Source: Iphione sp. A-MEVVRFRX5 (taxonomy: Eukaryota). From it: a DNA stretch of 64,000 nucleotides. A program made the position numbers and the translations under genes. Below the pieces are notes generated by a model, which saw only the letters and a list, made by a program, of their open reading frames with translations, made no database searches and was not told the DNA's origin. Positions within the stretch are counted from its first letter, which is position 1, and each line of letters opens with the position of its first letter. The stretch lies in assembly GCA_976226885.1 (NCBI GenBank), contig OZ320315.1, positions 40,858,001-40,922,000 on the forward strand, written 5' to 3'. Shown piece after piece: positions 250 to 64,000 of the stretch.

Positions 250-1800
250 ATGTAATCTACAGAATTCCCATCCTTGGTATCACGTTTCCCCTACTTACAA
301 ATACCTCTCACCTCTCAATTCTAAGGAGGGTAAACCCAAGAGTCTCCTTACGGCTAAGAAGGATTTCCTAGTCTTGGATGTACCTATTGCTACCAGCTTG
401 GCAAGCGTTTTGAAAGCAACCTCAGGGCCATCCATTTGCTGCTTGCTTTTGAAGATTATTAATGGGAGTATGAAAGCTTTAAACAGCCTCATTCTTTCCT
501 GTACATTTAGGTAGTAATCACATTTACTCAGCATATAATATAGCCTCTCTGCTTTGTCTTTCTTTTCGTCATATCTGCTGATTGCTTCCAGCTCAACTTA
601 TTATCAAGATGGATCCCCAGAAACTTACAATCTTGAACCTTCTTAATGGTGCTACCCGACAGCCGTATTTTGAAATCTAGGCTAGTTGACTGCCCCAAAA
701 CCATGTATCAGGTTTTATAACTATTCAGAAGGAGGCCATTAGACACCCAATATGATTCCACATCCCCTTTTGCATTTTGACGCCATAGCATTACTTGCTA
801 CATTGGTCACTGTTATATTATCCACATGCAGCATCAGCTTTCCTAGCAGTAGATTTGCTGGCAACGTATTCATTACAACGGAGAACAGCAAGGGTCCCAT
901 GAGGCTACCCTGTGGCACCCCATATCTAACTGGCAAAATTCAGGAGGAAGTGCTATTGCACCAAACAAATTGAGCTCTTCCTTCAAAGATAGGATGAAAA
1001 CCACTTGAGTGCCACCTGCTCTACCCCTGCATCACAGAGTCTATGGAGCACCCTCTGAGGCCGAATTGTGTCAAAGGCTTTACTCATGTCACGAAATACC
1101 GCTCCCACGTGCGTTTTATCATCCAGAGCTTGGTACACATTTCTTAGGAATATTGCTATAGCAGTGGTGGTGACCCTATCCCCATGGAACACGTGCTGTT
1201 CATCCCTGAAAAAGCCACTCACTTTCAGGTTCGTAGTCAGTTGAGAATGGACGATACATTCAATCAATTTTCCCATACTGTGTATTATAGAAATGGGGCA
1301 ATAATATAACAACTTAAGGGTTAACATTGCTTGAGGAGTGGAGTTACTCTGGATGTTTTGCAGCAGGTACATAGTCAGTTGACAATGGACATGGAATCAA
1401 TTTTCCCATACTGTGTATTATAGAAATGGGGTGATAATTTGAACAACTTAGGGGATAACCTTTCTTGAAGAGTGCGGTTACTATGGATGTTTTCCAGCAC
1501 TGCAGAAATTCTCTATCGGACAAAGTTTGGTCCCTTGCCGGCTCAATGCAGATAAGGAGGGCATCTCTCAATACCGCCATTGGTATATCGTTGATGCCTC
1601 TCGGTTTTCGTAGGTTCACAACCAGAATAAGTTTGCTCAATTGCGATACTGTAACAGGTTTAATACCCCAGTGCCCTGATCGTTGGTTTGGACCTAAAGT
1701 AAAGCTGAATTGTGAGGCGATTGGCTCTGGCTGACCGACGAAAAACTCATTTAGGGAATCTGGGACCTCGGTTCGGTTCAACGATACACCCTCATGGATG
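250..1800 (-). mobile_element. Decayed non-LTR retrotransposon (CR1/L2-like LINE) ORF2 reverse transcriptase fragment
   Basis: Broken minus-strand ORFs carry colinear LINE RT motifs: NYHPISIIHSMGKLI (1344-1781), VGAVFRDMSKAFDTI...LKWFSSYL (983-1372), YGVPQGSLMGPLLF...HVDN (739-936), RLFKAFILP (295-534). Multiple frameshifts and stops. Confidence 0.85.
1230..1470. repeat. Internal tandem duplication (period about 135 bp) inside the LINE relic
   Basis: caattttcccatactgtgtattatagaaatgggg occurs near 1265 and near 1398, with similar flanks (tagtcagttga.aatggac upstream, aacaactta downstream). Confidence 0.75.
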
Positions 1801-4399
1801 AACTAAATTTCAGGCCTCGCTCTGTTTTTCATCAGAATGTCGGAGTTTATTAGCTGCCAATATCCTTTATTATTGGAGAAGTGGGCCTTAAAAAGTAAAC
1901 CACAATATATACTTGATGAAGACATTTTTGTGTCTCATTCCTCATTTTCCCATACAGTTACATATTGTTTTTTGTCCTGCAAATATTGGCAAAGGTTTTT
2001 GTTTCAATGTACTAAAATACTCCAAAGTGCAGACGGATTGGCAAACAAAACATTTGACAGTGTAATATCTAGAGTGGAGGTCGATACACTCTCTAAACAA
2101 CTATGACACTTATCATTAGGAGACTCCTATGTATATCGTCTGGGAATGCTCAGGACTTCTGGCCGAAACGAAGTGACACGCAGATGTGAAGACATAAATA
2201 TTCGTGACATAAGCTGGTCAATGATTCACCTCTCCCTGCCCTGCTGGCGGCAGTGTAAGACGTATAAGACTCTGGGAGATGGATTGCAGGCGAGACAACA
2301 CACAGGGCCCCACCCTCGCAACCTGCCCTCCCCCCACCGCGCATGAAGCCCTCAGAGCAGCCAACCCCCCCTACCTCAAGCGCCCTCTTTTGGCCATTCA
2401 TATCCGCCAGGCTTATCTTGCTGCTTAGTCATTCCGGCTGCGTTTCCAGGGTAGCGTCCAATTTCAAATCCTGACTATAGGTCTCCGTTATTGACGGATG
2501 CTTGTTAGAAGGCAGGGTGGGAACGGCGTGGGATGGGGTGGGGGGAAGGGGGGCAGAGCCAGAGACGTGGAACTGACTGAGAGTACCGATGACTGCCTAC
2601 TGCAACTGTGTGATCTTTGCTGAGCTAAAATGACTGCCTTGTCAAAGAAGAAAAAGCAATTTGCCACCCCGCGGGGAGATCGGACAGGCGCGGCCATCGA
2701 AAGAGGTAGTTGTCGGAGGTGTGCAGCAGAGGGGGGGGGGGGGCGGGGAGGGAAGGGGAGGGGAGAGAGTGGGGGCTAACAGAATGTTGAGTAGTGCAGT
2801 GAGAGGCTGCCGTTGGCTGATGCTTGCTTTTTGGCTGCTGCATTTGGCTGCCGGCTGTGGTTGATCTTACGTCTGGTTTCCCTTAGAGGCTACATGCCTA
2901 TATTTCATGATTCAGACCTTGATTATTAATATTTGCCTGCTATTTACTTTCCACTCTTATCGTTACACGTTGGGTACACCAACTACTGACAAATATTCGA
3001 ATGGATCTCAGCTTAAAAAAGGTCCTCCGTATTTCATTCACAACTTAACGTAGATTGAATGGGTTAAGTATAATTTTCATCACAAAAAAGCTCAAGAAAA
3101 AAGCTCAAGGTTCCTTCATCTATCAATTGGCTGCTTTCGGTAAAGCATCGTTTACGATTAAATGATGTATGCGACATGATCGTTGTAAGGAAACATACCA
3201 GACGGTGATGACACCCCGCATTGGAATTAAATAAGGATCTACTGGAGTCCTCATGGCCTAAGATAGCTTCTTTGGAATGAAGTATTTCAAGGATTTCTCA
3301 AGAAATATCGCAACGAGGAATATTTATATACATGTATAAACGTTCATGTGTATGCCCTTGCACCCGACCTTTATATAACCACTTTAAGATGGTCAAACGC
3401 CTTATTTTTGGAGGAATATACATAATGTATATAATGGAAGCAAATATACATATCTATCGTATACATGTTCAGATATTATACAAGGAAGGCGATGATAACT
3501 GCCACGCAATACAGACTGTTAAAAATAATCCTAGTGTTATTATATCAACGTTGGATAGACGGCTTTGAGAGTCACCCGTGCTGGTTTACTCTGTATTTTG
3601 TCGATGGTTCAGCCTCGAGAGGCAGGCATTATTGTTTTCTTTGATTTGATTACGGAGAAGCAATCTGCAGAGCCCTTGCCTTAAATCTACTATAAGTGCC
3701 TTCTTCTACGCTTCTAATACTACGTAGTGTGTACCTGTTCTTTATTCTTTTTGTGTGATGCATTGGGTACTTTGTGTTTCATCACAATCAATTTGGTCGG
3801 GAGATATCTGTGTAGTGTGATGATGGTCACAAATAACATTTTTCTACCCATATAGTGCTTCATAGAGGAGAGTCGACTGAGGGATCTTGGCCAGTGTTGA
3901 CTTTGCTGTGTGGCTGTGATTTCGGTACATTTGGCTGTGATTGGGTGCAACTCTCCACTGCCATTGCGTCGTGTTCCTTCATGTGGCATACTCTGAACGT
4001 TTTTTTTGTCCTTTGTGTTGTTAGCAAATGGAACCAATGCCATGCCATTCTGCGCCAGCTGATAGTAATGACACTTCCGCGATGCCCGTTTATCTGTTGA
4101 TAAGAATATTTACTGAAACTCCTAACTTCCTGCTAAAATACTCGCGGCTTTGAGAGGCATCCACACTATCTTCAGCTTTGGCTTTTTTTTAATGATGTAC
4201 ATACCACTTAAGATTTTCTGTCTACACTGAAAAGTTGAAATATCTCAATTCTTCCCTTCTTTGCTGTTGGGTCTCGCAAAATATACATGTAGGGCATTCA
4301 TTTCTTTACTCCTTAGATTTAATGCTATTATCTTAGTCCATCGTATGGTTCTTGCCACTGATTTTACTGCTGGACGTTGGTTTCGCTGGCCATGTCCGG

Positions 4400-15222: not shown

Positions 15223-16284
15223 CTATGTGATCGTCGTCGAGTGGCGATAGAGTATCTTGTCACACGAGCTGAGACACTTCTGCACGGTGTCGTTGACGCC
15301 CTGAATGTCTCGCTGGTGTGTGGCGGCGGCAGCGGTCGCGGCGGCAGCAACGGCGGCTGCCGCGCTTGGATTCTCGGCGCTGGCGCTGCGGATGATAGGC
15401 GTCGGCATGACGCCCGATACTGCCGCCACGCACGAGCGGGCGTCCAGCGCCGTGGAGGTGCTCGCCGTCGTGTCAGAAGCCCCATCGAGCAGCTCGACGG
15501 ACGAGCGCGGCGTGGTGAGGGTGGAGAGCGAGCGGCGCACCTGCGGCGCGTCGGCCGACTGCGTGCGGCGCGGCCAGCTGGAGCACTCGGCCATCGAGCG
15601 GTTCCACTCGGCCCGGATGGCGTTCAGCTTCTCCTGCGTCTGAACGCGCGTCCGCTCCATAAGGTCCTCCAGCGAGCGCTCTATGTCTGACTCTGTACGG
15701 AAACTGAGGCGCACCCTGGAGGGAGCGCTGGCGCTACTGTCGCTGCGAGCCAGTAGGGGGCTAGGCGATGAGCCGCGTCCCATCCCCGGCGGCGGCGCGC
15801 CGTCAGGCAGCGGTGTCGACGTCTGGCGGCGAACCGGAGGCCTAATGGCGATGGGCGAACTGGCGCCCGGCCAGCTGAAGCGTGTCCGGCCCAAGCCGTT
15901 TGGGGCAACCGGAGAGGCCATGCTGGTCGGTGCGCCGCCGCTGGTCGCCGGCGGGGATTGCATCGAGTGCTGGCGGTAGGCGCGGCTCCAGCTGGCGCTC
16001 TTCTTTACCGCCGGTGACATCACTAGCGGGCGTTTCGGCGACGAGTCGAGGAACTTGGTCAACTCGGGCGGAATGCCGTTAGCGTCATCGCCACGGGGCA
16101 GCCGTAAGGTGCGCTGGATACGGTCCCACAAGGTCTCCCTGCTACGGCCCTTACGAAACGTCCACGTTAAGGTGAGCGTGATCTTGTGGTGGCCGTCAGT
16201 GATGTTCCACTTGAGGCCGTCTCGATACTGCTGCATGTGGAGCAGGAACTGAATGACCACCCTGGGCAGGCCGTACGTCGACAT
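15223..16284 (-). CDS. Intronless host ORF, 353-aa protein of unknown function
   Basis: Uninterrupted GC-rich frame in AT-richer surroundings. ATG at 16284 has a good context (ccagccATG); the track start at 16299 is a GTG. Ordered-looking N-terminus MSTYGLPRVVIQFLLHMQQYRDGLKWNITDGHHKITLTLTWTF, S/P/R-rich middle, amphipathic segment ESDIERSLEDLMERTRVQTQEKLNAIRAEW, C-terminus VQKCLSSCDKILYRHSTTIT. Family not recognised. Confidence 0.78.
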   Translation of the reverse strand: MSTYGLPRVVIQFLLHMQQYRDGLKWNITDGHHKITLTLTWTFRKGRSRETLWDRIQRTLRLPRGDDANGIPPELTKFLDSSPKRPLVMSPAVKKSASWSRAYRQHSMQSPPATSGGAPTSMASPVAPNGLGRTRFSWPGASSPIAIRPPVRRQTSTPLPDGAPPPGMGRGSSPSPLLARSDSSASAPSRVRLSFRTESDIERSLEDLMERTRVQTQEKLNAIRAEWNRSMAECSSWPRRTQSADAPQVRRSLSTLTTPRSSVELLDGASDTTASTSTALDARSCVAAVSGVMPTPIIRSASAENPSAAAAVAAAATAAAATHQRDIQGVNDTVQKCLSSCDKILYRHSTTIT

Positions 16285-17519
16285 GGCTGGTGACGTCACT
16301 TACGTCAGCGGCGCCTCAGTTTACTGTCTCTTACTTCTTCTGTCTTTTGCTGATATATTATGCTTGTTGCAGGGTTTTCCGATGTTTATTATTTTGTCTT
16401 CTTCTTTCAACACAACACCGCTGGAAGCTTTGGTTCAATTTTCTTAACCGTTTTCTTGGTTGCTAGGCGTTATCACCAATAGAGTTCCTCAGGCGGACTA
16501 CCTCTCCTCGAACTTCATGATGACGACTGTTGTCAGGCATGACATTGATCAGATTCTTTTTCAGAAGGAAACTTAAACTCTTAAACTTGTGAATATCGAG
16601 TGTAAAATTGTTTTGGAAACTGTGTTGCTTTATCTCGTTGATATGTTTTCGGCCTGTGATTGTTAGACTGTTATGTTGCTACGTGTGAGCTGGAATGGTT
16701 GTTGATGTCAGTAGTTGTGATGCCAATTGCAACAAGTTGTTTCGGTTGTGTCCTGTCAATTTAATCAGTATTTAATGATGGGTGATACCCCTGAGTTGGA
16801 GGGAACTATAAAGTGACTTCCAAGTCAGCTGCAGACCCACGACCTCTACGCATAGAGGTGTGAAAACCGAAATAGAAAACGTCATGGGTGAATGTGTATA
16901 TACGATCATTCATGTAGGTGTAAAGATGTGTGAGCTGGGTGTGCTGTGTTGCGTGGACGTTCAAGCTGTATCAAAGTTTTGGCTCCTGAGTTATGAATTT
17001 ATTTATGCGCCCTGAGAAAAGCATGCAAGTTAGTACATGCTACAATGCACCCATGTACGATTTAGTGCCTTCTTCTGTGGATTGTCACGCGAGTATTTCT
17101 AGGTGTACCCCCCGGTTTTAAAACGATTCTGGTAAGAATGAGTTAATCCTCTTTGCTCTGTCAGCGCTTTCTTTCCTTGATAATTCGTAAACGTTGACAT
17201 GGAACTTAGCGTGAAAATGAAAATAAGCAGTATGCAGTTTGTTGGTTATCAACGGCATCCTTATTAAACATGGTGAAAGCGGTGTGCTAGAGATCGCCCC
17301 CATCTTAAAAGTACAATCCTTTGAATTCTCCAAAAATTCTGAAACACCATCTTCATTATAAGGATCATTTACTTTCAAGCAGGCAGGCCGCGTCTCCAGA
17401 CGCGAGGACGTCCCAAAGTAATCCCATGCACATTTAAAAAGAAACGAGTGAGTTTAAAACGTAGCGCTGCAGGGATATCGCTCAGATACGATCTTAACAG
17501 AATGCAGTATGAACAGTAT

Positions 17520-41020: not shown

Positions 41021-41520
41021 TTTCTATATACAGTTCAAGTTTAATTGCCTTCCGGCAGTTGTTGTATCGATGCGGAACTCTTAGCTTTGCCGTTCCTTTT
41101 TTTTTTGGTACTTCTTCGTATCTCCAAATCCCGCATTTCCTGTAGGGTACTCGCTAGTCCCCTGCACCTGGCTCTGTTCATTTGCCCTTCCCTACCTGGC
41201 GTTCTCGTGGTTCTGCAACGATTTTAAATCATCACCGGTATCCTCTCTGCTGCACACACAAGCACGCGCCCACCCACACGACAGTCATGACTGGTTTCTG
41301 TAACTCCTCCTGCCCCATACCCCGTCTAATCCTGGGCCCTATCTCCACCTTGTCGTCACAGCTCTCGTTGTAGAACTGCCCGCCTAGCCGGCAGCCAAGC
41401 GACTAATGCATCGCCTACTGCCCCTCCGCCGTCGGTCTCTGTACGTCGCCTGCCGCCTGTCGGAGGCAATTGCGTCAAATGTCCTGATATGTAATTCATC
41501 TTCACTGTAGCCGTCGGCGC
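41021..41520 (-). mobile_element. Possible decayed 3' end of a Penelope-like element
   Basis: Lies directly 5' of the hammerhead on the same strand; FYNESCDDKVEIGPGLDGVW is only weakly like GIY-YIG C-termini. Confidence 0.25.
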
Positions 41521-55379: not shown

Positions 55380-55592
55380 TGTTGGCCTCCACCATAATGA
55401 AGACGACATAAGTTGAGGAGAATGATGTTTATTGCTGAAGAGCTTCGACACAACTGACAGCGAATCCAAAATACAACGCATTTATATAGCAAATTGAAAC
55501 CCTCCGCAGTATAAATAATTCCCTCCACGGTGTACCCTCCGCACCCTCCGCACCCTCCGCTAAATGGTCCTCCGCTCCCCCCCGTCGCTACA
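55380..55592 (-). repeat. 3' LTR, 213 bp, TG...CA
   Basis: Minus strand begins TGTAGCGAC and ends GGCCAACA; first 125 bp on the plus strand match 63876-64000; TATATAAA at 55488-55481; AATAAA at 55433-55428. Confidence 0.93.
55501..55575 (-). promoter_or_regulatory. U3 cluster of five GCGGAGG motifs upstream of the LTR TATA box
   Basis: CCTCCGC at 55501, 55536, 55545, 55554 and 55569; the middle three have a 9-bp period. Confidence 0.75.
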
Positions 55593-55605
55593 CTATCCCC
55601 TCCTT
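55593..55605 (-). other. Polypurine tract
   Basis: AAGGAGGGGATAG directly abuts the TG of the 3' LTR. Confidence 0.9.
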
Positions 55606-55608
55606 AAT

Positions 55609-55920
55609 TTAATCCTGACCCAGGATACTATAACATTCATGAACCTCAAATTCAACATCAGCGGCGGTAAGAAACTGTAAACGAATATCAAATTCATCAA
55701 TCTGGAGGCCTAGGGGCACTGGCCGCACCCCTTTATACCAGTCCGAGAAGAGAAACTCGGTCTCTCCCTCCGGGAAGCCGTCCTCTTCCGTTCTTTGTAA
55801 GCAAACACGACTTTCAATTACTACGCACATTCTACCTCGCCTCCGCGCTACTCGGCTTTTACCCACCGATATTAGAATTGTCCACCCCCGGGGGGGCTGA
55901 GTTAATGAATTTACCGGCCT
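55609..55920 (-). CDS. 103-codon open frame, in frame with the zinc-finger ORF after one TGA; acidic/aromatic tail (or separate 73-aa ORF from ATG 55830)
   Basis: Frame is open from 55920 to TAA at 55611-55609, 3 nt before the PPT; ...EEDGFPEGETEFLFSDWYKGVRPVPLGLQIDEFDIRLQFLTAADVEFEVHECYSILGQD. Confidence 0.5.
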   Translation of the reverse strand, partial: RPVNSLTQPPRGWTILISVGKSRVARRRGRMCVVIESRVCLQRTEEDGFPEGETEFLFSDWYKGVRPVPLGLQIDEFDIRLQFLTAADVEFEVHECYSILGQD

Positions 55921-58780
55921 TCAGGAGGCCCAACGCAACCAGTCCGAGAGGGTAAGTGTCCGTGAGTGACTGCCGTGGTGGCCCCCGTCCGGGGCTGGCA
56001 ACCGCGGGAGCCCGGTCTCCCCAGCGGCGGAGCTGGAATCTTCCTCTGAGCCTGTCGACAAGGGTTGGCCCGTTCGGGGGAGAGCTGTACCGCCCCCCGC
56101 CCGATTGCTGGGGCCCGGTTCGGCGTGGGAGGAGGTCCCGTTACCACCCTTCCCGTGTTCGTCACCCTCCGCCGACTGGAGGGGCACCTTCCTTCTACCA
56201 TGGCTAGGGCCCTGTTCGATGTGGGAGGCGGGCCCGTCACCGACCCTCCCGTTTTCATCACCCTCCGCCGATTGGAGGGGCACCTTCCTTCTAGGCTGGT
56301 CAGGACCTGGCATGGCAGGAGGGGAGGTTTCAATCCCCCCCCCCCCTTGTTCGTCACCCTCCGCCGATTGGAGGGGCACCTTCCTTCCGTCGTGGGAGGT
56401 GGGCCCGTCACCAACCCTCCCATGTTCGTCACCCTCCCCCGATTGGAGGGGCACCTTCCTTCTAGGCTGGTCAGGATCTGGCATGGCGGGGGGGGGAAGC
56501 TTCAGTTCCTCCCCCCCCTTGTTCGTCACCCTCTGCCGATTGGAGGGGCACCTTCCTTCCGTCGTGGGAGGTGGGCCCGTCACCGACCCTCCCGTTTTCA
56601 TCACCCTCCGCCGATTGGAGGGGCACCTTCCTTCTAGGCTGGTCAGGATCTGGCATGGCGGGGGGGGAAGCTTCGGTTCCTCCCCCCCCTTGTTCGTCAC
56701 CCTCCGCCGATTGGAGGGGCACCTTCCTTCCGTCGTGGGAGGTGGGCCCGTCACTGACCCTCCCGTTTTCATCACCCTCCGCCGATTGGAGGGACACCTT
56801 CCGTTCCGTTGGGCTGGGGGCTGAGGTGGTTTGCCCCCCGGCCTTGCGGGGGGAGGGCTCGGCCTTCCCGCTTCTGGACCCGTCACCTCCTTCCGACGAC
56901 AGAGGCGCGCCAGGCTTACTCATGGGGTGTTGACGCCTCGCTTCCCAATCCAAGACCTGGCGCGCGATGCGCCTCGACTTCTCCGCCTCCTCATGACCAA
57001 CGGGAAGGAGGGGTTCGTCCACAGGGTCGGCCTCCGCTTTTGCGCCTTCAGTGTAGCACAGTTCTTGGGACGGTTTCTCCGGGGTGGGCCCGTCCTCGCT
57101 GGACGGAATGGGGTGGCCAACGAGGGAGCCAAAGGAAGACTCGCCCCCCTCCGCAGCCCCCATCGGTTCAGCGCCCTCGGTGTTTCCTCCCGGCTTCTCT
57201 GGAATCGTGGCGGGTGGGGCCACCGATGGAGGGTTCGCTGCGGCCAAGAGGGTGTCCATGTCTACTGCCCCGAATAAGTCCTCCAGAACTTGGGCGGCTT
57301 GGTCGACCTCAGCCTGTGGCGCCTTCGGCGCCTCGCGTGCGGAGGAGACCAGGGTCTGAATCGCAATGCTCAGTTCATCTGGGGTCGGAGGCATCGTAGG
57401 AGTGTGGAGTAGGGGTGACGGTACCGACCTCGAATGAGTGGGAGTCTTGAGGAGCGGGGACATGGCCTTATCCGGGAGACCCCCACTCTTGTCTGCGACG
57501 AGCCCGGCTCGGGCAACCATCGGCCGACCAGAGGGGGCTTCTGCTCGCTGCCCCCCCTTCAGTAACTCCGGCGTGCGGAGGGCTGGCTTGGCGGGGGTCA
57601 GCCCCAGGCCCTTCCCCGGGGTGACTGGGCTGGACTCCGACCGACTGGGCCGGAGATCTGCAGTTCGTATGGCGGCCTCTAGGTCTCCCGCGGCGGACAG
57701 CAGCTTCTCCAGGGCGGTAGGCGTCACAGGAGGGTCAGCGGTTTCGGCGGCATCGAGGCGGTTGATGGCCTCTTGGAGTCTGGCCTTCATCCCCTGGGGC
57801 GAGGTGGGGGGGGCGGATGGCTCACCCTCCCCCTCCTCGTGGACGAGCTGGCGGACGCGAGGGTGCGTGGGGGGGTCGACTGCTGCCTCCGCCTCCCCAA
57901 GCTTCCTCTTCTTTGTTGAGGAGCTAGTCGCCGATGCCTTGGTGGTAGCGCCCCCCTCCGCGCTTACCCCCTCCGTCTTCTTGGTGGGTGTCAAGCTTTT
58001 AATCGTCACCTCCCCCGCTGGAGCGGCCTTGACGGGGGTAGACCTTGTCACCCTCTTCTCAGGTTCGTCCCCCTTTTCCCGTCGGGTGGTCTTCTTGTGC
58101 ACCCGGACCCAAGCTGCCGAGGGAGACCGGGAAGCGGGAGCACTCTCCTCCGACGAAGTCAGGATCGCCGGTCTCCGCCTCGGGCTCTCTCGTCGCCCTG
58201 TCGAAGTGGACGCCTGCGGTGAAGTCGGTGGCCGGCATGGAGGTCCCAGTGACGGGGTGGGCAGCGGTGGTGCGGAGGGCTCACTGTCCGACGAGGAGGG
58301 AAGTCTGGCTTTCTTCCTCTTGGGTGGAGTGGGGGTACTGTCCCGGCGGCGTGACTTCCGTTGCTCGTGTGACCCCTCACCCCGCTCTCGGCTTCTCTTC
58401 TTGTCCTTGTGTCGGCCACCACAATGAGATCTGGCTGAATCGGAGGTCCCACTCCCCGCTTCCCCCTCGGCCTCCTCAGGGCGGCGGAGCCGCCCCCGCA
58501 AGGTGGTGGACCCCGGCTTCTTGTAAAACTCGTAATATTCTTCCTTCATTTTTGGCAGCAGTTTCTGTGCCCCTCCCTCAGCCAGGTGGGTCTTCGAGTC
58601 CAGGTGCCGCCTCAGATCGTCCTTGCGCATAAAGATCTTCCCATCGCACTTCTCCCCTCCGCATCCCCACGCGAAGCCCTCAGAGCTGTGGGTCTGTACA
58701 TGCCGCTTAAGGTTGTCCTTGCGGTCGCAGACCTTCTTGCAGAGTGGGCAGGGATACTCGTCTTTCTGGCTCTTCGTCAT
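55921..58780 (-). CDS. Putative separately expressed two-finger C2H2 protein (769 aa as assembled to 56471; about 952 aa if the G9 tract at 56488-56496 is G8)
   Basis: gacaccATG at 58780; finger 1 CPLC-x12-HVQTH; finger 2 CGGEKC-x13-HLDSKTH (58756-58586); NLS-like KKRSRER, PKRKKAR and KKRK; long S/P/T/E-rich region; repeats. Confidence 0.65.
56155..56805. repeat. Tandem array of 8 units (75/96-bp spacing) encoding RKVPLQSAEGD repeats
   Basis: Core tcaccctccgccgattggaggggcaccttcc; motif positions 56166, 56262, 56358, 56433, 56530, 56605, 56701, 56776. Spacings are multiples of 3 except one of 97. Confidence 0.95.
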
Positions 58781-61700
58781 GGTGTCGAATGATGAGCATC
58801 CCCTGGGGCGAGCGTCACTTATATTCGAATCTGGCGCCGCAGCTTCCTCCGCTCGATTTTCATTGGCTAGTAGCTTCCCTCCGCATCGCGGCCCCCTCCG
58901 CATTCGTCTTCCGCCCTTCTGATTGGCCCCTTCATTTTGAACTCCAACGGCCCTAGGTTCGCGGAGGTCCTCCGCCCTTTCCTCAGTCCTCCCTCCGCTT
59001 TTTTCGATGCGGAGGGTGGCCACGACCGCGCTATCTTCCCTCGGGGCCCCTGGCTTCAGGAGGTCGGCGTGTACTACTCTTTCTCGCCGCCCCTTCTTGA
59101 TGCGATAGACGGCGGCCGAGAGCTGCTTGCTGATCCGCCATTTGCCTTGCCAGTATCGCTGTAACTTAGGAGATAGCCCTGGCTTTTTCAACGGCAGGAA
59201 CAGGTACACCTCCTCCCCTACCTCGAAGTTCCGGGGCCGCACTCGGTGGTTGTACCAGTCGGTCTGGCGCTGGATTCCCTCCCCTAACCGCTGGTTGGCC
59301 AGCTGATGGGCTTGTTTCATCCGTTCCATCTGCTCCTGGACGAACGGTCCAACCTCCGCTCCTCCCTCCTGTGGGGGGCCTCCGTAAGCTGCCTCAACGG
59401 GGAGTGTAGTCTCCCGATTCAGGATGAGGAAATTTGGGGAGAAGCGAGTGGTGCGGTGGGGGGTCACCCGGTACGCAGCCGTTACAAACGGTAGCCGAAG
59501 GTCCCAATCGCGTTGGTCTTCCTGGACCGTCGTTGCGAGCATATGCTCTAGCGTTCGGTGGAACCTCTCCACCACTCCATCGGCTTGGGGATGGTAGGGG
59601 GTGGTCCTGGTGTTCTGAATTCCGCAGCCCTTGAGCAGTTGGGCCACTAGTTCTGCCTCGAAGTTCCGGCCTTGATCGCTGTGGATTACTCGGGGGGGCC
59701 CGAACCGACAGATCACCTCCCTCATCATCACCTCCGCAGTAGCTTCCGCGGTTTGTTCCTTGAGTGGGAAGGCTTCTGCCCATTTGCTAAAATGATCCCC
59801 TACCACCAGGATGTACTTGTTGCCCCGGGGCGTCCTCGGAAATGGCCCGGCGATGTCCACGGCTACCAACTCCCAAGGTCCCGGACTCTGGCGGTGCTGC
59901 AGTAGAGTTCGTTTCCTCCGACTGGGCCTCTTCGCCTCCAGACAACGCGGGCAGGCCGATCCCCATACAATCAAATCCCGAGTCATTCCCGGCCAGAAAT
60001 ACCTCCCCCGGAGGAGGCCAGCCATTTTCTGAGGGCCGAGATGGCCGCCCATGACTCCCTGGTGAATCATCGTCCAACACTCTTTTTGTAGGGGAGGGGG
60101 GACCCAGGCTTGCCACCAGGCCCTTCCGTCTTCATGTTCCCACCTCCGCACGATCAGCCCTCCGCGGGCCTGTAGTCGTTTCCACTCCCCTACCAGCCGC
60201 CGCTCTTCCCAGCTGGTCTCTGTCTTAACCTCGGGGGGGCCTTCCCCCCGCTCCAGCCGTCCTAGCAACTCGCCCCCAATCGGGTCCGCTAAGGTGTCTC
60301 TAGCCATGGTGGAAGATGAAGGAGCCTCCGCCCTCACTTCCGTAGTCAGAATAGCGGTCGTCTCCTCGGGCTCTCGTCGGCCGCACTGTTTACATGGCCG
60401 TCTGGACAACCCGTCGGCGTTGTTGTGTACCCTCCCCGGCCGATGTATGACTTCCACCTCTCGACAGGCCAGTTCTTCTAGCCAGCGTGCCATTTGGCCC
60501 TCCGGCTCTTTGAAGTTCATGAGCCACCGGAGGCTCCCATGGTCGGTACGCACCACTACCTTCCTTCCGCTAACGTAGGTCTTGAATTTCCGGAGGGCGA
60601 AGATTACAGCTAGCAGCTCCTTCCGAGTTACGCAATAGCGTTGCTCGGGCTTAGTGAGGGCCCGACTAGCGTACATCAGCACTCTCTCCCGGCCGTCCTG
60701 CTCCTGGGAGAGGACTGCACCTACTCCCTCGCCGGAAGCGTCAGTGTCTACAATTAGGCGCCCCTCCGGTTGGGGGTATCCCAGGATAGGTGCGGAAGTT
60801 AGGCAGGGCTTGAGATCTTCAAAGGCGGCTTCCTCTTCACTTCCCCACCGGAACTCTGCTTCTTTGTCCAACAGTCGATGGAGGGGGGCGGCTCGCCGCG
60901 CAAAGTCTCGGATAAACGAGCGGAAATAAGAGGCTAAACCCAGGAAGGCACGGAGACCGGCCAAGGTCCCCGGCACTGGCCACTCTGCTACGGCTTGAAC
61001 CTTCTCCGGGTCTGGGCGGACCCCCCCCGCACTAACGATATGGCCGAGGTACTGTACCTGTTCTCGGAGGAGCTGGCATTTGCTAGGTTTCACCTTGAGA
61101 CCGGCGGCCTCCAGCCGTTGGAGCACCTCCGCCAAGCGGTCGCACATCTCCCCCACCGTCTTGGCCATGATGATGACATTGTCCAAGTACACAAGGCAGG
61201 AGTCCCCGATCAGACCGCGGAGGACGACATCCATCAATCGTTCAAAGGTGGAGGGGGCGTTGCAGAGACCGAAGGGCATGACCCGGAACTGGTAGAGTCC
61301 GGACGGGGTGCAGACGGCTGTCTTCGGGCGGTCCTCTGGCCGGACCGCTACTTGCCAATACCCAGACGCCAGGTCAATCACCGTGAAGTACTTGGCTCCG
61401 GCCAGCGCATCCAGGGTGTCATCCACGCGTGGTAGGGGGTAAGCATCCTTGCGCGTTCGCTCATTGAGCTGTCGGAAGTCTATACAAAACCGCCATTCCC
61501 CACTCCGCTTCTTGACCAGTACCACCGGTGAGGCCCACGGGCTGCTGGAGGGTTCCAACACCCCTTGTCGTACCATTTTTTGGATCTCCGCCTCCCCGAT
61601 GCGCATTTTATGGGGTGGAAGACGTCGGAATCTCTGTCGCACTGGGGCTGCCTCTCCTATATGAATCTCGTGTTCCACGAGAGTGGTGCGCCCTAGATCA

Positions 61701-62740
61701 GTACCCTCCCTCTGGAAGGCGCGGCGGTGAGTCCAAAGCACCTGCCTCAGCTGCTCCCGCTCTTCCACCGTGCTTCCCGAGGGCAGCTCGGACATCAGCT
61801 CCTCGATTAGCCGTGCGTAGAGGGGCTCCTCTGCCTCACCCTCCTCCTTAGCTGGTACCTCTTCCACCGCCTTAAGTTCGCCTGGATCGTCTTGCCTCCG
61901 CAGTTCCTCCTCGACCTCCTCCGCCTCCGCCACCTGCGTCCCCCTCCGCAGCCAGACCTCCCCCTCCGCCACATTCAGACAGAGGAGTTGGGCCCGTCCA
62001 TTGTCCACGTTAGCCACTGCATGTGGCACTCGCACCCCTGCCCGCTGTTCCAGCGCGGGAACCGGTCCTACGACCCATTCGCCCCCTTGGGCCTGACCGA
62101 TGGTCACCGAGATAAGGGTCTCGGCCCGGGCTTTCAGGCAGGTGTCCTGGGCTAGCTGTACTCGTTCCGGTCGCGCTCTGTTCTTCCGGATGGTGATTGT
62201 CCCGGCGGCTGTGTCCACTACAGCCCTCCTCCGGCGGAGGGCGTCCATCCCCAGGATGGCAGCTTGCTCCACCTCTGCAACCAGGGCCTCCATCGTCCAG
62301 GGTGTCTCCCCGAAGACCACCGTCACTTCGGTCCTCCCCACACAGGGGAAGGGCGCCCCGTTGGCGGCAATGATGCGTCGCCCTGGTAGGACCGTGACAG
62401 GCAGCCGGAGGGCCTCCGCCGTTCGCACCGCGATGATGGTGGTTGAGGCTCCTGTGTCCACCAGCCACGTCATTTCTTGGCCTCCGTCTTTTCCTCGTAG
62501 CCCTAGCGCCCCGGTAAAGGGGTCCGCACGCCCCTTCAGGACGGTGAGGGCTTCGTCTTCCTCCTTCGGCGGCATGGCCGCCCTCTTCTGGAGCCAGTCA
62601 TTGAGCTGCTCCTTGGGGATGGACTCCTCCGCCGCCTCTGCCTGTCCCCTTACAGGGAGGGCGGCACGTCGTTTTCCGCCAGCTTCGGCCGTGAAGGGCA
62701 ATCCCGCTTGAAATGCCCCTCCTTCCCACAGCGGAAGCAC
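56471..62740 (-). CDS. pol: Pol polyprotein (PR, RT, RNase H, integrase) fused in frame to a C2H2 zinc-finger/disordered extension
   Basis: LVDTGAS (PR); VIDLASGYWQV, MPFGLCNAP, YLDN (RT); TDAS...ELLA...TDH (RH); H-x6-H...C-x2-C, VDIAGP, SDQG-x35-E (IN). No stop after IN. Probably expressed by -1 frameshift from gag. Confidence 0.95.
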   Translation of the reverse strand: MLPLWEGGAFQAGLPFTAEAGGKRRAALPVRGQAEAAEESIPKEQLNDWLQKRAAMPPKEEDEALTVLKGRADPFTGALGLRGKDGGQEMTWLVDTGASTTIIAVRTAEALRLPVTVLPGRRIIAANGAPFPCVGRTEVTVVFGETPWTMEALVAEVEQAAILGMDALRRRRAVVDTAAGTITIRKNRARPERVQLAQDTCLKARAETLISVTIGQAQGGEWVVGPVPALEQRAGVRVPHAVANVDNGRAQLLCLNVAEGEVWLRRGTQVAEAEEVEEELRRQDDPGELKAVEEVPAKEEGEAEEPLYARLIEELMSELPSGSTVEEREQLRQVLWTHRRAFQREGTDLGRTTLVEHEIHIGEAAPVRQRFRRLPPHKMRIGEAEIQKMVRQGVLEPSSSPWASPVVLVKKRSGEWRFCIDFRQLNERTRKDAYPLPRVDDTLDALAGAKYFTVIDLASGYWQVAVRPEDRPKTAVCTPSGLYQFRVMPFGLCNAPSTFERLMDVVLRGLIGDSCLVYLDNVIIMAKTVGEMCDRLAEVLQRLEAAGLKVKPSKCQLLREQVQYLGHIVSAGGVRPDPEKVQAVAEWPVPGTLAGLRAFLGLASYFRSFIRDFARRAAPLHRLLDKEAEFRWGSEEEAAFEDLKPCLTSAPILGYPQPEGRLIVDTDASGEGVGAVLSQEQDGRERVLMYASRALTKPEQRYCVTRKELLAVIFALRKFKTYVSGRKVVVRTDHGSLRWLMNFKEPEGQMARWLEELACREVEVIHRPGRVHNNADGLSRRPCKQCGRREPEETTAILTTEVRAEAPSSSTMARDTLADPIGGELLGRLERGEGPPEVKTETSWEERRLVGEWKRLQARGGLIVRRWEHEDGRAWWQAWVPPPLQKECWTMIHQGVMGGHLGPQKMAGLLRGRYFWPGMTRDLIVWGSACPRCLEAKRPSRRKRTLLQHRQSPGPWELVAVDIAGPFPRTPRGNKYILVVGDHFSKWAEAFPLKEQTAEATAEVMMREVICRFGPPRVIHSDQGRNFEAELVAQLLKGCGIQNTRTTPYHPQADGVVERFHRTLEHMLATTVQEDQRDWDLRLPFVTAAYRVTPHRTTRFSPNFLILNRETTLPVEAAYGGPPQEGGAEVGPFVQEQMERMKQAHQLANQRLGEGIQRQTDWYNHRVRPRNFEVGEEVYLFLPLKKPGLSPKLQRYWQGKWRISKQLSAAVYRIKKGRRERVVHADLLKPGAPREDSAVVATLRIEKSGGRTEERAEDLREPRAVGVQNEGANQKGGRRMRRGPRCGGKLLANENRAEEAAAPDSNISDARPRGCSSFDTMTKSQKDEYPCPLCKKVCDRKDNLKRHVQTHSSEGFAWGCGGEKCDGKIFMRKDDLRRHLDSKTHLAEGGAQKLLPKMKEEYYEFYKKPGSTTLRGRLRRPEEAEGEAGSGTSDSARSHCGGRHKDKKRSRERGEGSHEQRKSRRRDSTPTPPKRKKARLPSSSDSEPSAPPLPTPSLGPPCRPPTSPQASTSTGRRESPRRRPAILTSSEESAPASRSPSAAWVRVHKKTTRREKGDEPEKRVTRSTPVKAAPAGEVTIKSLTPTKKTEGVSAEGGATTKASATSSSTKKRKLGEAEAAVDPPTHPRVRQLVHEEGEGEPSAPPTSPQGMKARLQEAINRLDAAETADPPVTPTALEKLLSAAGDLEAAIRTADLRPSRSESSPVTPGKGLGLTPAKPALRTPELLKGGQRAEAPSGRPMVARAGLVADKSGGLPDKAMSPLLKTPTHSRSVPSPLLHTPTMPPTPDELSIAIQTLVSSAREAPKAPQAEVDQAAQVLEDLFGAVDMDTLLAAANPPSVAPPATIPEKPGGNTEGAEPMGAAEGGESSFGSLVGHPIPSSEDGPTPEKPSQELCYTEGAKAEADPVDEPLLPVGHEEAEKSRRIARQVLDWEARRQHPMSKPGAPLSSEGGDGSRSGKAEPSPRKAGGQTTSAPSPTERKVSLQSAEGDENGRVSDGPTSHDGRKVPLQSAEGDEQGGGGTEASPPAMPDPDQPRRKVPLQSAEGDENGRVGDGPTSHDGRKVPLQSAEGDEQGGGGTEASPPRHARS
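58785..59015 (-). promoter_or_regulatory. Internal Pol II promoter embedded in the integrase/zinc-finger linker
   Basis: GGGCGG (58977-58972, 58916-58911), GGCCAATCA (CCAAT at 58926-58922), AGCCAATGA (58866-58862), TATAAG (from 58823), Inr TCATTC (A at 58790), ATG at 58780; seven GCGGAGG motifs. Confidence 0.65.
62631..62677 (-). other. Putative -1 programmed ribosomal frameshift signal
   Basis: G GAA AAC (62677-62671), 5-nt spacer, then hairpin GCCGCC-C-UC-CCUGU/AAGGGG/ACAGG-CA-GA-GGCGGC (62665-62631); pol is in the -1 frame relative to gag. Confidence 0.7.
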
Positions 62741-63891
62741 CCGGTTCGACTGCCCGTTGCTGGACCTTGTTCCAACTGCCTCTCCAGCTGGTCTAGCTTC
62801 TTAGCGAGCCGGTCCAAAAAGTCATCTTCTCGTTTGGCCCGGGCGTCTCCCTCCACCGTCGACAGCGAGTGGCAGCCAGCCCTTCCGCCATAGGCCTTCC
62901 CGGTTGGTTCCCTTTCCCTCCGGCCCTGGAAATAGGCCTCCCCGAAGAGGGCCTCTGATACTGCCGCGCGGAAGTTGGCCACCCTCCGCTGCACCACCCA
63001 CTTCCTCACCTTCTCATCCGCAATTGCCTGGATGAAGCTATCCTGGCAGAGCTCATCTGCCCATTGTCCTCGAACCCCCGGGTACGCCCGTTTCACCAGG
63101 TTCTCCACTTCATCGGCCAGTTGGGATAAGTCGGCCTCGCCTTGCTTGTGGGTCTTTAACTGCTGTTTAAATAGGTCCACCTGATCTGGCGACCGGAAGC
63201 GACTGCGGAGGGCCTCCACCAACTTCTGGTAGGCCCGTGGATCATGGACCCGCACGCCGGAGTTCCGCATGGTGGTCTGTGCCGGACCACGGAGACTGAT
63301 TCCGAGATGAATGGCCTTCTCCTTGGCGGACCATCGATTAGCGGCGGCGGCGAGGCCGAAGTGGTGAAGGTAATCGTCAAGGTCCGTCGAGCCATCGTTT
63401 GGCTTGGGCTTAGCTCTACCCTTCCGGGGCCGCTCATCTGAGTCTTCTCCTGTTTCCTCTTCCTCCTCCTCCTCCTCCTCTTCTGACTCCTGGTGGGGGT
63501 CTTCCCCTTCGGGGAGTTCCTCTTCTCTTCCGGCTGGCTGTCCCTCCCCCGTGCCGGGGGCCCCCGCCACCCCGGGGTCCTCCGCAGGGTGGGCCCCTGC
63601 CGAGCCGTCTTCACCGCTCCTTGGGGGGGAAGCCGATTCCCCCTCGGTACCTTCGCCCCCTCCCCATAGCCTCGAAGGGGTGCGTACGGGGCGCGGCCTC
63701 CCAGTGGGCAGTTGCGCCTCCTCTCCCCCGTCGGCGTCCTCCGCAGTTGCCCTGCGGGTAACCCTCCGCGTCCCGGCTGCCGTGGCTGCTTTCTGCGGAG
63801 GGGGTGTTTGCTCCCTTTCGGGGCCTCGATTCGTCGGCCCCGAGGTTCCCCTCCGCATCCCACTTCTGACACCAATGTTGGCCTCCGCCAT
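62650..63891 (-). CDS. gag: Gag protein, 413 aa
   Basis: Acidic/low-complexity N-terminus; capsid-like DLDDYLHHFGLAAAANRWSAKEK...LRGPA; nucleocapsid CFRCGKEGHFKRDC (CCHC). Confidence 0.93.
   Translation of the reverse strand: MAEANIGVRSGMRRGTSGPTNRGPEREQTPPPQKAATAAGTRRVTRRATAEDADGGEEAQLPTGRPRPVRTPSRLWGGGEGTEGESASPPRSGEDGSAGAHPAEDPGVAGAPGTGEGQPAGREEELPEGEDPHQESEEEEEEEEEETGEDSDERPRKGRAKPKPNDGSTDLDDYLHHFGLAAAANRWSAKEKAIHLGISLRGPAQTTMRNSGVRVHDPRAYQKLVEALRSRFRSPDQVDLFKQQLKTHKQGEADLSQLADEVENLVKRAYPGVRGQWADELCQDSFIQAIADEKVRKWVVQRRVANFRAAVSEALFGEAYFQGRREREPTGKAYGGRAGCHSLSTVEGDARAKREDDFLDRLAKKLDQLERQLEQGPATGSRTGCFRCGKEGHFKRDCPSRPKLAENDVPPSL
63857..63874 (-). other. Primer binding site, tRNA-Leu
   Basis: TGGTGTCAGAAGTGGGAT, 1 nt from the LTR end, is complementary to the metazoan tRNA-Leu(CAA) 3' end ATCCCACTTCTGACACCA (recalled, not searched). 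Confidence 0.88.
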
Positions 63892-64000
63892 AATGAAGAC
63901 GACATAAGTTGAGGAGAATGATGTTTATTGCTGAAGAGCTCCGACACAACTGACAGCGAATCCAAAATACAACGCATTTATATAGCAAATTGAAACCCTC
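63876..64000 (-). repeat. 5' LTR (R/U5 part and TATA; rest outside window)
   Basis: 123/125 identical to 55380-55504; the full LTR is expected to end near 64088. Confidence 0.95.

Follow-up and report, generated by a model that had tools for sequence, protein, structure and literature searches.

A Ty3/Gypsy retrotransposon of Iphione sp. enriched in the site predicted for its own zinc fingers suggests self-encoded transcriptional control

The window analyzed here, the whole 64,000-nucleotide stretch of Iphione sp. DNA, contains an 8.6-kb Ty3/Gypsy LTR retrotransposon on the minus strand. The element was assigned from its direct TG...CA LTRs, a primer-binding site after the 5′ LTR, a polypurine tract before the 3′ LTR and the order of its Pfam domains, with gag followed by protease, reverse transcriptase (RT), RNase H and integrase. 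Its features, in the order of the element, are as follows.

63876..64000, minus strand: 5′ LTR, 125 bp inside the window, cut by the window end
63857..63874, minus strand: primer-binding site, starting with TGG 1 base after the LTR, which we take to be that of tRNA-Leu
62650..63924, minus strand: gag with a CCHC knuckle and 8 GCGGAGG sites
59051..62800, minus strand: pol, with protease, RT, RNase H and integrase (H2C2, rve, p58-type C-terminus); 14 sites in the protease-to-integrase span
58781..59015, minus strand: candidate internal promoter in the integrase-finger linker, with 7 GCGGAGG, 2 CCAAT boxes, TATAA and an initiator-like motif
56471..58780, minus strand: finger protein from an internal ATG at 58780, with two C2H2 fingers and a long low-complexity tail, in the integrase frame
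58688..58756, minus strand: C2H2 finger 1 (Pfam zf-C2H2, E 2e-4), helix −1 to +6 RKDNLKR, predicted to read GAG
58586..58669, minus strand: C2H2 finger 2, atypical spacing, helix RKDDLRR, predicted to read GCG, aligned to designed and natural fingers
56107..56802, minus strand: coding tandem repeats (96/171 bp) in the finger-protein tail; 6 GCGGAGG in 56050-56830
55593..55605, minus strand: polypurine tract directly upstream of the 3′ LTR
55380..55592, minus strand: 3′ LTR, 213 bp, TG...CA (U3 of ∼137 bp, R and U5), placed by identity with the 5′ LTR and by the polypurine tract upstream
55501..55575, minus strand: U3 array of five GCGGAGG and one GTGGAGG
55452..55488, minus strand: putative LTR core promoter from a motif scan, TATATAAA at 55488 and initiator-like TCAGTT at 55457
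55428..55433, minus strand: polyadenylation signal AATAAA in R, whose sole other copy is in the 5′ LTR

The pol frame comprises 2109 codons and runs stop-free past the integrase into the two C2H2 fingers and the tail. The window copy looks defective, since its RT catalytic motif deviates from that typical of the family and breaks in the tail frame occur near 56470 and 55921. Neither an env nor a Tas family was present among the Pfam matches of the three ORFs scanned. The interior of the element has a GC content of 60-66%, against ∼40% in the flanks, where the CpG observed/expected ratio is 0.73. No second copy of the element and no solo LTR was located in the 55-kb flank, and the exact sequences of the window's two proteins were absent from the protein collection searched.

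Pol, in the −1 frame, shares ∼150 bases with gag, and a slippery-like heptamer is followed by a hairpin (62666-62620, minus strand) no stronger than those of shuffled sequences (z −0.95, 36/200 folding equally well). The first in-frame gag ATG (63891, minus strand) is located within U5 of the 5′ LTR, and its frame crosses the primer-binding site; the first two in-frame ATGs (63891 and 63858) each adjoin or overlap a GCGGAGG. At the other end, 55609-55920 (minus strand) holds a 103-codon stretch in the frame of the last tail ORF beyond one stop, ending at the polypurine tract. An atlas search returned no relatives of this 103-residue stretch at 0.9 or above. The same segment holds TATAAA at 55737, with no initiator match.

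The 3′ LTR and the part of the 5′ LTR inside the window are the same at 123 of 125 bases. The U3/R border, and with it a presumed start site, was placed near LTR position 137 from the initiator-like TCAGTT at 55457 and the AATAAA at 55433, so that the U3 of about 130 bp given by the first-pass annotation was right. The TATA box, TATATAAA, lies at 55488 (LTR position 105), and TCAGTT follows 31 bases past its first T. The same annotation had reported five GCGGAGG copies in U3 upstream of the TATA box, and these were confirmed as exact minus-strand copies at 55501-55507, 55536-55542, 55545-55551, 55554-55560 and 55569-55575. In the 213-bp LTR (55592..55380) they correspond to LTR positions 86, 51, 42, 33 and 18, with a degenerate sixth copy, GTGGAGG, at position 65; the copy closest to the TATA box ends 12 bp upstream of it. 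At least five GCGGAGG were obtained in 0/20,000 dinucleotide shuffles, both for the first 110 LTR bases and for the whole LTR, and any 7-mer reached at least five copies in 37/20,000 shuffled LTRs. The 9-bp phasing reported earlier holds as a spacing of three sites, but these form a single perfect tandem triplication (55534-55560), and helical phasing of the U3 sites was dropped. An intact GCGGAGG also lies in U5 of the 5′ LTR at 63882-63888. The sole two inter-LTR differences over the 125 bases, at LTR positions 148 and 202, both fall in CGGAG-containing words, and one of them makes the U5 site its TpG form in the 3′ LTR.

Finger 1 has canonical spacing and was alone detected by Pfam zf-C2H2, with a match below the curated cut-off. 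Sequence matches in the PDB were to DNA-binding C2H2 proteins, with values to E 7e-16 over repeated fingers. For finger 2, the C, Arg(−1), Asp(+3) and both His were invariant in 5/5 aligned proteins. A single-sequence structure model was weak (pLDDT 60) with both helices present, and a fold search gave no match at E <0.001. Because the spacing of finger 2 and of the inter-finger linker (non-TGEKP) is non-canonical and the model is weak, the finger code may not apply exactly.

Published modules pair RSDNLVR with GAG, RSDDLVR with GCG and RKDNLKN with AAG (excerpts of PMC5260015 and PMC7317221), and the helices RKDNLKR and RKDDLRR agree with the GAG and GCG modules at the base-contacting positions. 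Since fingers read antiparallel, finger 1 on GAG and finger 2 on GCG, the pair would select GCG-GAG. Asp at helix +2, found here in finger 1, favours G or T as the 7th base, and the full predicted site is thus GCG-GAG-(G/T). GCGGAGG agrees with this code at 6/6 predicted bases, plus the 7th through the +2 Asp rule, and the predicted GCG-GAG is the core of the most enriched 7-mer in the element. Two details were counted against the model: at the 7th base G is enriched and T is not, though the code allows both, and a T precedes the site in 20/44 cases (p 1e-5), which two fingers do not predict.

Finger 2 carries Asp at helix +3, the position to which we take E446 of Klf4 to correspond. The Klf4 variant E446D has an eightfold preference for unmethylated cytosine (PMC5137437, in excerpt). 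With Asp(+3) over the CpG cytosine of the site, finger 2 probably favours unmethylated copies by analogy and may contribute to keeping them free of silencing. The finger-protein tail has basic NLS-like runs at 58304-58324 and 57896-57913 and an acidic amphipathic stretch at 57230-57379. Under a strict rule, acidic activation windows numbered 0 in the tail of the window's protein, versus 4/4 relatives with them, which was counted against the model.

The first-pass annotation had proposed a factor/response-element pair between the fingers and U3. On sequence grounds this pairing has good support, but the proposal was too narrow, the site not being specific to U3. The 50 GCGGAGG of 55380-64000, against 6 in the flank of 55,379 bp, are spread over both strands and all frames, with 41/50 in sense. 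In the element interior 44 were found versus 3.5 expected. Each segment was tested against 2000 shuffles in which amino acids and codon usage were held fixed. Sites numbered 8 in gag versus 0.8 expected, 14 in the pol core versus 2.8 and 7 in the integrase-finger linker versus 1.2 (0/2000 synonymous shuffles in each case). The excess was weaker in the tail of the finger protein (7 versus 2.6 expected, 10/2000), and the finger segment showed none under synonymous shuffles. The excess in gag, pol core and linker also held under dinucleotide, codon-order and synonymous-codon shuffles (0/2000 each). Within gag and pol core together, GCGGAGG was the top 7-mer (22 versus 3.70 expected, z 9.8, synonymous shuffles). 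Sense copies numbered 29 versus 6.56 expected and antisense copies 9 versus 1.66 (each 0/1000 shuffles); because each strand is enriched separately, a double-stranded DNA signal is favoured.

The signal extends to codon and amino-acid choice. Ala is encoded by GCG in 19/27 Ala-Glu-G contexts versus 42/210 elsewhere (p 2.5e-7), and GCGGAGG ranks 1/8192 among 7-mers when inferred from the amino acids of the window alone; an earlier amino-acid proxy, based on 6-mers, had been swamped by the G-rich composition, and the refined proxy used 7-mers. The variants GTGGAGG, GCAGAGG, GCTGAGG and GCGGAAG were not enriched in the element. Nor were GC-box, EGR-type or HINFP-like motifs, and a GC-box/EGR explanation was dropped. 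The excess of GAGGAGG vanished under the synonymous control (90/1000) and that of GGGGAGG was marginal (17/1000). With tandem-repeat sites left out, the element has four clusters of at least five sites in 200 bp, matched in 10/20,000 random placements. A five-site cluster at 61895-61969 (minus strand), in the protease-RT linker, is partly a 19-bp tandem repeat and has no TATA or CCAAT signature.

The two densest clusters of sites lie directly upstream of TATAA+initiator pairs, one in the LTR U3 and the other in the integrase-finger linker. The linker, 270 bp that precede the finger ATG (58780), is the densest stretch outside U3, its 7 sites (5 sense and 2 antisense) giving a density equal to that across the LTR. 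It holds CCAAT boxes at 58928 and 58868, TATAA at 58823 and an initiator-like TCATTC at 58792. The two boxes are the only matches to RRCCAATSR in the element and lie 105 and 45 bp upstream of the TATAA. A TATAA+initiator pair at LTR-like spacing occurs in 3 places in the element, namely both LTRs and 58823. In 50,000 shuffles of the linker, TATAA+initiator arose 2 times, two CCAAT boxes 38 times and both together 0 times; two CCAAT boxes anywhere in the interior arose in 52/300 shuffles and are not significant alone. The promoter pattern was defined post hoc, after the sequence had been seen, which was counted against the model. On these motifs the linker is a candidate internal promoter.

Homologues were searched with the RT-to-finger region, giving 2439 matches among 8000 candidates of 1159-3691 residues, of which the best 120 were examined. 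The finger-bearing relatives were reached solely via the pol core. Direct searches with the finger region gave no homologues specific to it (0/24 and 0/63 candidates scored); a representative search gave 3255 matches, of which the 150 listed were generic multi-finger proteins, and an atlas search gave generic small C2H2 clusters only. C2H2-like patterns after the integrase were present in 9 of the best 120 homologues. A FastTree tree was built from 108 of these 120, nearly all unnamed search hits, after removal of 12 whose matches to the core were short. It places the window in a ten-member clade (support 1.0) that also contains the finger-bearing P0173, P0181 and P0189, and puts the remaining six proteins with fingers in a clade next to it; the two clades are joined with weak support (0.62). 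P0283, a longer member of the cluster of P0175, also has the finger pair, and 5/11 members of the cluster of P0189 are full-length in-frame integrase-finger fusions. P0160 and P0161, the closest homologues among the best 120, stop soon after the integrase, which was counted against the model.

Across five aligned finger pairs, Arg(−1) and Asp(+3) of finger 2 and Arg(+6) of finger 1 are constant and the other contact positions vary; a conserved CGG core is predicted to be read from these three constant residues. A Met is found 5-22 residues before finger 1 in 10/10 finger proteins, whose lineages are not independent. In relatives with other finger-1 helices the GCGGAGG amino-acid footprint is missing (ranks 158, 1318, 2195 and 5516). 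The amino-acid proxy did not convincingly recover the relatives' own predicted sites, with best ranks of 655 and 1449 of 8192, corresponding to 9 among the 32 patterns tried and 73 among 128. Co-variation of finger and site across families is therefore unproven, the refined proxy working for the window and not for the relatives' predicted sites.

Several further features were seen in the relatives. P0247 and P0256 have a second finger pair at the far C-terminus, and P0206 is annotated with Pfam PF00385, which we take to be the chromodomain; accessory modules after the integrase get swapped within the lineage. P0173/P0181 and P0189/P0283 each share, within the pair, a C-terminal tail stretch of 75-130 residues (E 1e-23 and 7e-11), and neither stretch was detected in the tail of the window's protein. 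P0297 and P0298, two members of a finger-bearing Gypsy cluster, are source-labelled as proteins of a bacterial symbiont bin and probably represent host DNA in the bin.

The pattern of sites suggests that the element switches itself on as complex retroviruses do. We consider it fairly probable that a self-encoded finger factor, produced from the internal promoter, activates that promoter and the LTR, and that it may coat the body of the element. Host CCAAT-binding and basal factors would give low basal transcription from the internal promoter, and this transcript would yield a stand-alone finger protein from the ATG at 58780. The protein would bind the 7 sites at its own promoter in positive feedback and the 5-6 U3 sites, the LTR response element of the circuit, switching on the genomic gag-pol RNA. 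Through ∼35 further body sites it could coat the whole element; it would probably prefer unmethylated copies and may keep them unsilenced. In the window and in relatives the fingers are in frame with the integrase. This was counted against the stand-alone model, and a fused integrase-finger role remains on that account.

Such a role could take the form of cDNA recognition in cis, assembly or import of the pre-integration complex, or steering of integration, with sites that are not promoter elements. The stop-free frame from integrase to fingers speaks for it together with the fusions in the cluster of P0189, as do the coverage of the whole element by sites and the closeness of some to the LTR ends, at 18 bp from that of U3 and, in the 5′ LTR, at 7-13 bp from that of U5. 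It nevertheless leaves the TATAA+initiator pair and the two CCAAT boxes before the conserved Met unexplained, the end-proximal sites are direct and not inverted, and P0160 and P0161 end without fingers. The flank site nearest to the 3′ junction is at 41423; the ∼14 kb of site-free flank argues against target selection, and insertion-site targeting near the window copy was dropped. We regard an integrase role as rather unlikely. It is also unlikely, in our view, that the pair is real and the protein is a self-repressor or copy-number brake beside both TATA boxes. The 12-bp distance of the last U3 site from the TATA box is consistent with a brake, as are the sites adjoining both gag start codons and the primer-binding site and the tail lacking an acidic activation window under the strict rule. 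The U3 sites, however, form a multi-site array upstream of the core promoter and not over it, an arrangement typical of activators; dozens of coding sites, which cost amino-acid changes, would be more easily selected if binding benefited the copy; and acidic-hydrophobic windows were present in 4/4 relatives.

A host factor, either a G-rich C2H2 transcription factor or an RNA-binding protein, might bind GCGGAGG with the finger match incidental. G-rich sites are frequent among host C2H2 proteins, the preceding T is enriched, sense sites predominate, and U3 belongs to the 3′ end of the genomic RNA. Set against this are the separate enrichment of antisense copies, the lack of enrichment of the GC-box, EGR-type and HINFP-like motifs, and the missing GCGGAGG footprint in relatives with other finger-1 helices. 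By arithmetic a chance match of fingers and motif would occur in ∼1 in 500 even among GNN-GNN-(G/T) sites, and we hold the host-factor explanation to be quite improbable. An artefact of base composition or codons in a G-rich element (those for Ala-Glu, Arg-Arg and Gly-Gly), with one tandem slippage in U3, would draw on the GC-rich interior, on the triplication that accounts for three of the five U3 sites and on the frequency of GAGGAGG and GGGGAGG. It was refuted by the persistence of the enrichment under all three shuffle controls and by the loss of the GAGGAGG excess under the synonymous control, and is given almost no weight.

In foamy viruses, Tas acts in a positive-feedback loop by binding to U3 and to an internal promoter (PMC7390438 and PMC4929722, in excerpt). 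The element resembles the Tas/Bel1 system in having a predicted DNA-binding regulator 3′ of the enzymes, directly preceded by a candidate internal promoter, a layout known here from sequence signatures only. It differs in being an env-less Ty3/Gypsy element whose regulator is a two-finger C2H2 protein in the integrase frame and not Tas. Both of its promoter regions carry one and the same 7-mer, whereas Tas sites have little sequence in common (excerpt of PMC7390438), and the sites of the element also extend through gag and pol. The anti-silencing protein VANC of Arabidopsis VANDAL elements binds to a short motif that is specific to the family and has built up in the element, in part via tandem repeats, and both protein and motif diverge between VANDAL families (PMC5735166, in excerpt). 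Here too 50 cognate-motif sites have accumulated, some carried by the U3 triplication and the tail repeats. VANDALs are however plant Mutator-like DNA transposons, VANC is not a C2H2 protein and its motifs are non-coding, whereas the present element is a retrotransposon with C2H2 fingers and with sites mostly in coding sequence; a VANC-like demethylation is only hypothetical for it.

TnpA of Spm/CACTA and the AtMu1 transposase are self-encoded, sequence-specific activators of cognate copies (bioRxiv 10.64898/2026.08.24.746577, abstract), but they derive from transposases of DNA transposons, whereas the factor proposed here is a zinc-finger module carried by an LTR retrotransposon. Plant Retand (TRP28), a Gypsy lineage, has tandem repeats, a long stretch between pol and the 3′ LTR and an additional ORF there, which may encode a DNA-binding protein and is suspected of a regulatory function (PMC11963269, abstract). 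The element shares the long pol-to-LTR region, the tandem repeats and the extra ORF. The Retand ORFs are antisense and not C2H2, with no target site named in the abstract (PMC11963269), whereas the ORF here is in sense and its target is readable from the finger code. Fingers of Egr1, WT1 and Klf type and designed GNN modules likewise have Arg(−1)/Asp(+3)/Arg(+6) and Arg/Asn/Arg helices, as in GCG and GAG modules, but the element has two fingers only, an atypical spacing in finger 2 and a non-TGEKP linker, and its fingers are encoded by a mobile element. By analogy, the proposed circuit would work like a foamy-virus loop combined with VANC motif accumulation, and belongs to neither family.

To our knowledge, envelope-less LTR retrotransposons are generally thought to be dependent on host transcription factors. 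Regulators that are self-encoded and sequence-specific are an established feature of complex retroviruses and of some plant DNA transposons. In the present case the putative factor and its site are both contained in a single element of 8.6 kb and the C2H2 code allows one to be matched to the other, and escape of an animal retrotransposon from silencing becomes testable with short oligonucleotides and a 65-residue domain. The further prediction that LTR motifs track finger helices across families can be tested at genome scale. If true, fingers and sites that have co-evolved would form a natural library across the families, and the codon and amino-acid usage of pol would be a clear example of shaping by a protein-binding site.

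A full-text literature search, which left most subscription journals uncovered as well as the entries of repeat databases, in which the finger domain might be annotated, gave no title or abstract opening describing a Gypsy element with its own C2H2 regulator. The terms 'zinc finger' and 'C2H2' were absent from the main text of surveys of annelid and mollusc LTR elements (PMC8220671, PMC8556966 and PMC6238403), and nothing comparable was contained in the excerpts of bioRxiv 2022.11.29.518450, bioRxiv 2024.04.02.587720 and PMC2836005. A wider reading, which we find tempting but would not bet on, is that an animal Gypsy lineage independently evolved a complex-retrovirus-like transactivation circuit with a two-finger C2H2 protein, made up of an internal promoter, the self-encoded regulator and a response array in the LTR. 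Each family would then barcode its genome throughout with the site specified by its own fingers, including codon and amino-acid choice; one conserved finger would read unmethylated CpG and the other would diversify, giving a family-specific and methylation-sensitive anti-silencing that mirrors host zinc-finger repression of transposons.

Two other features were observed in the flank. A GC-rich ORF of 358 codons at 15223-16299 (minus strand) is probably an exon of a host gene and has a weak DUF6891 match below the cut-off. At 983-1802 (minus strand), two ORF fragments resemble, by eye, a decayed non-LTR (LINE) reverse transcriptase.
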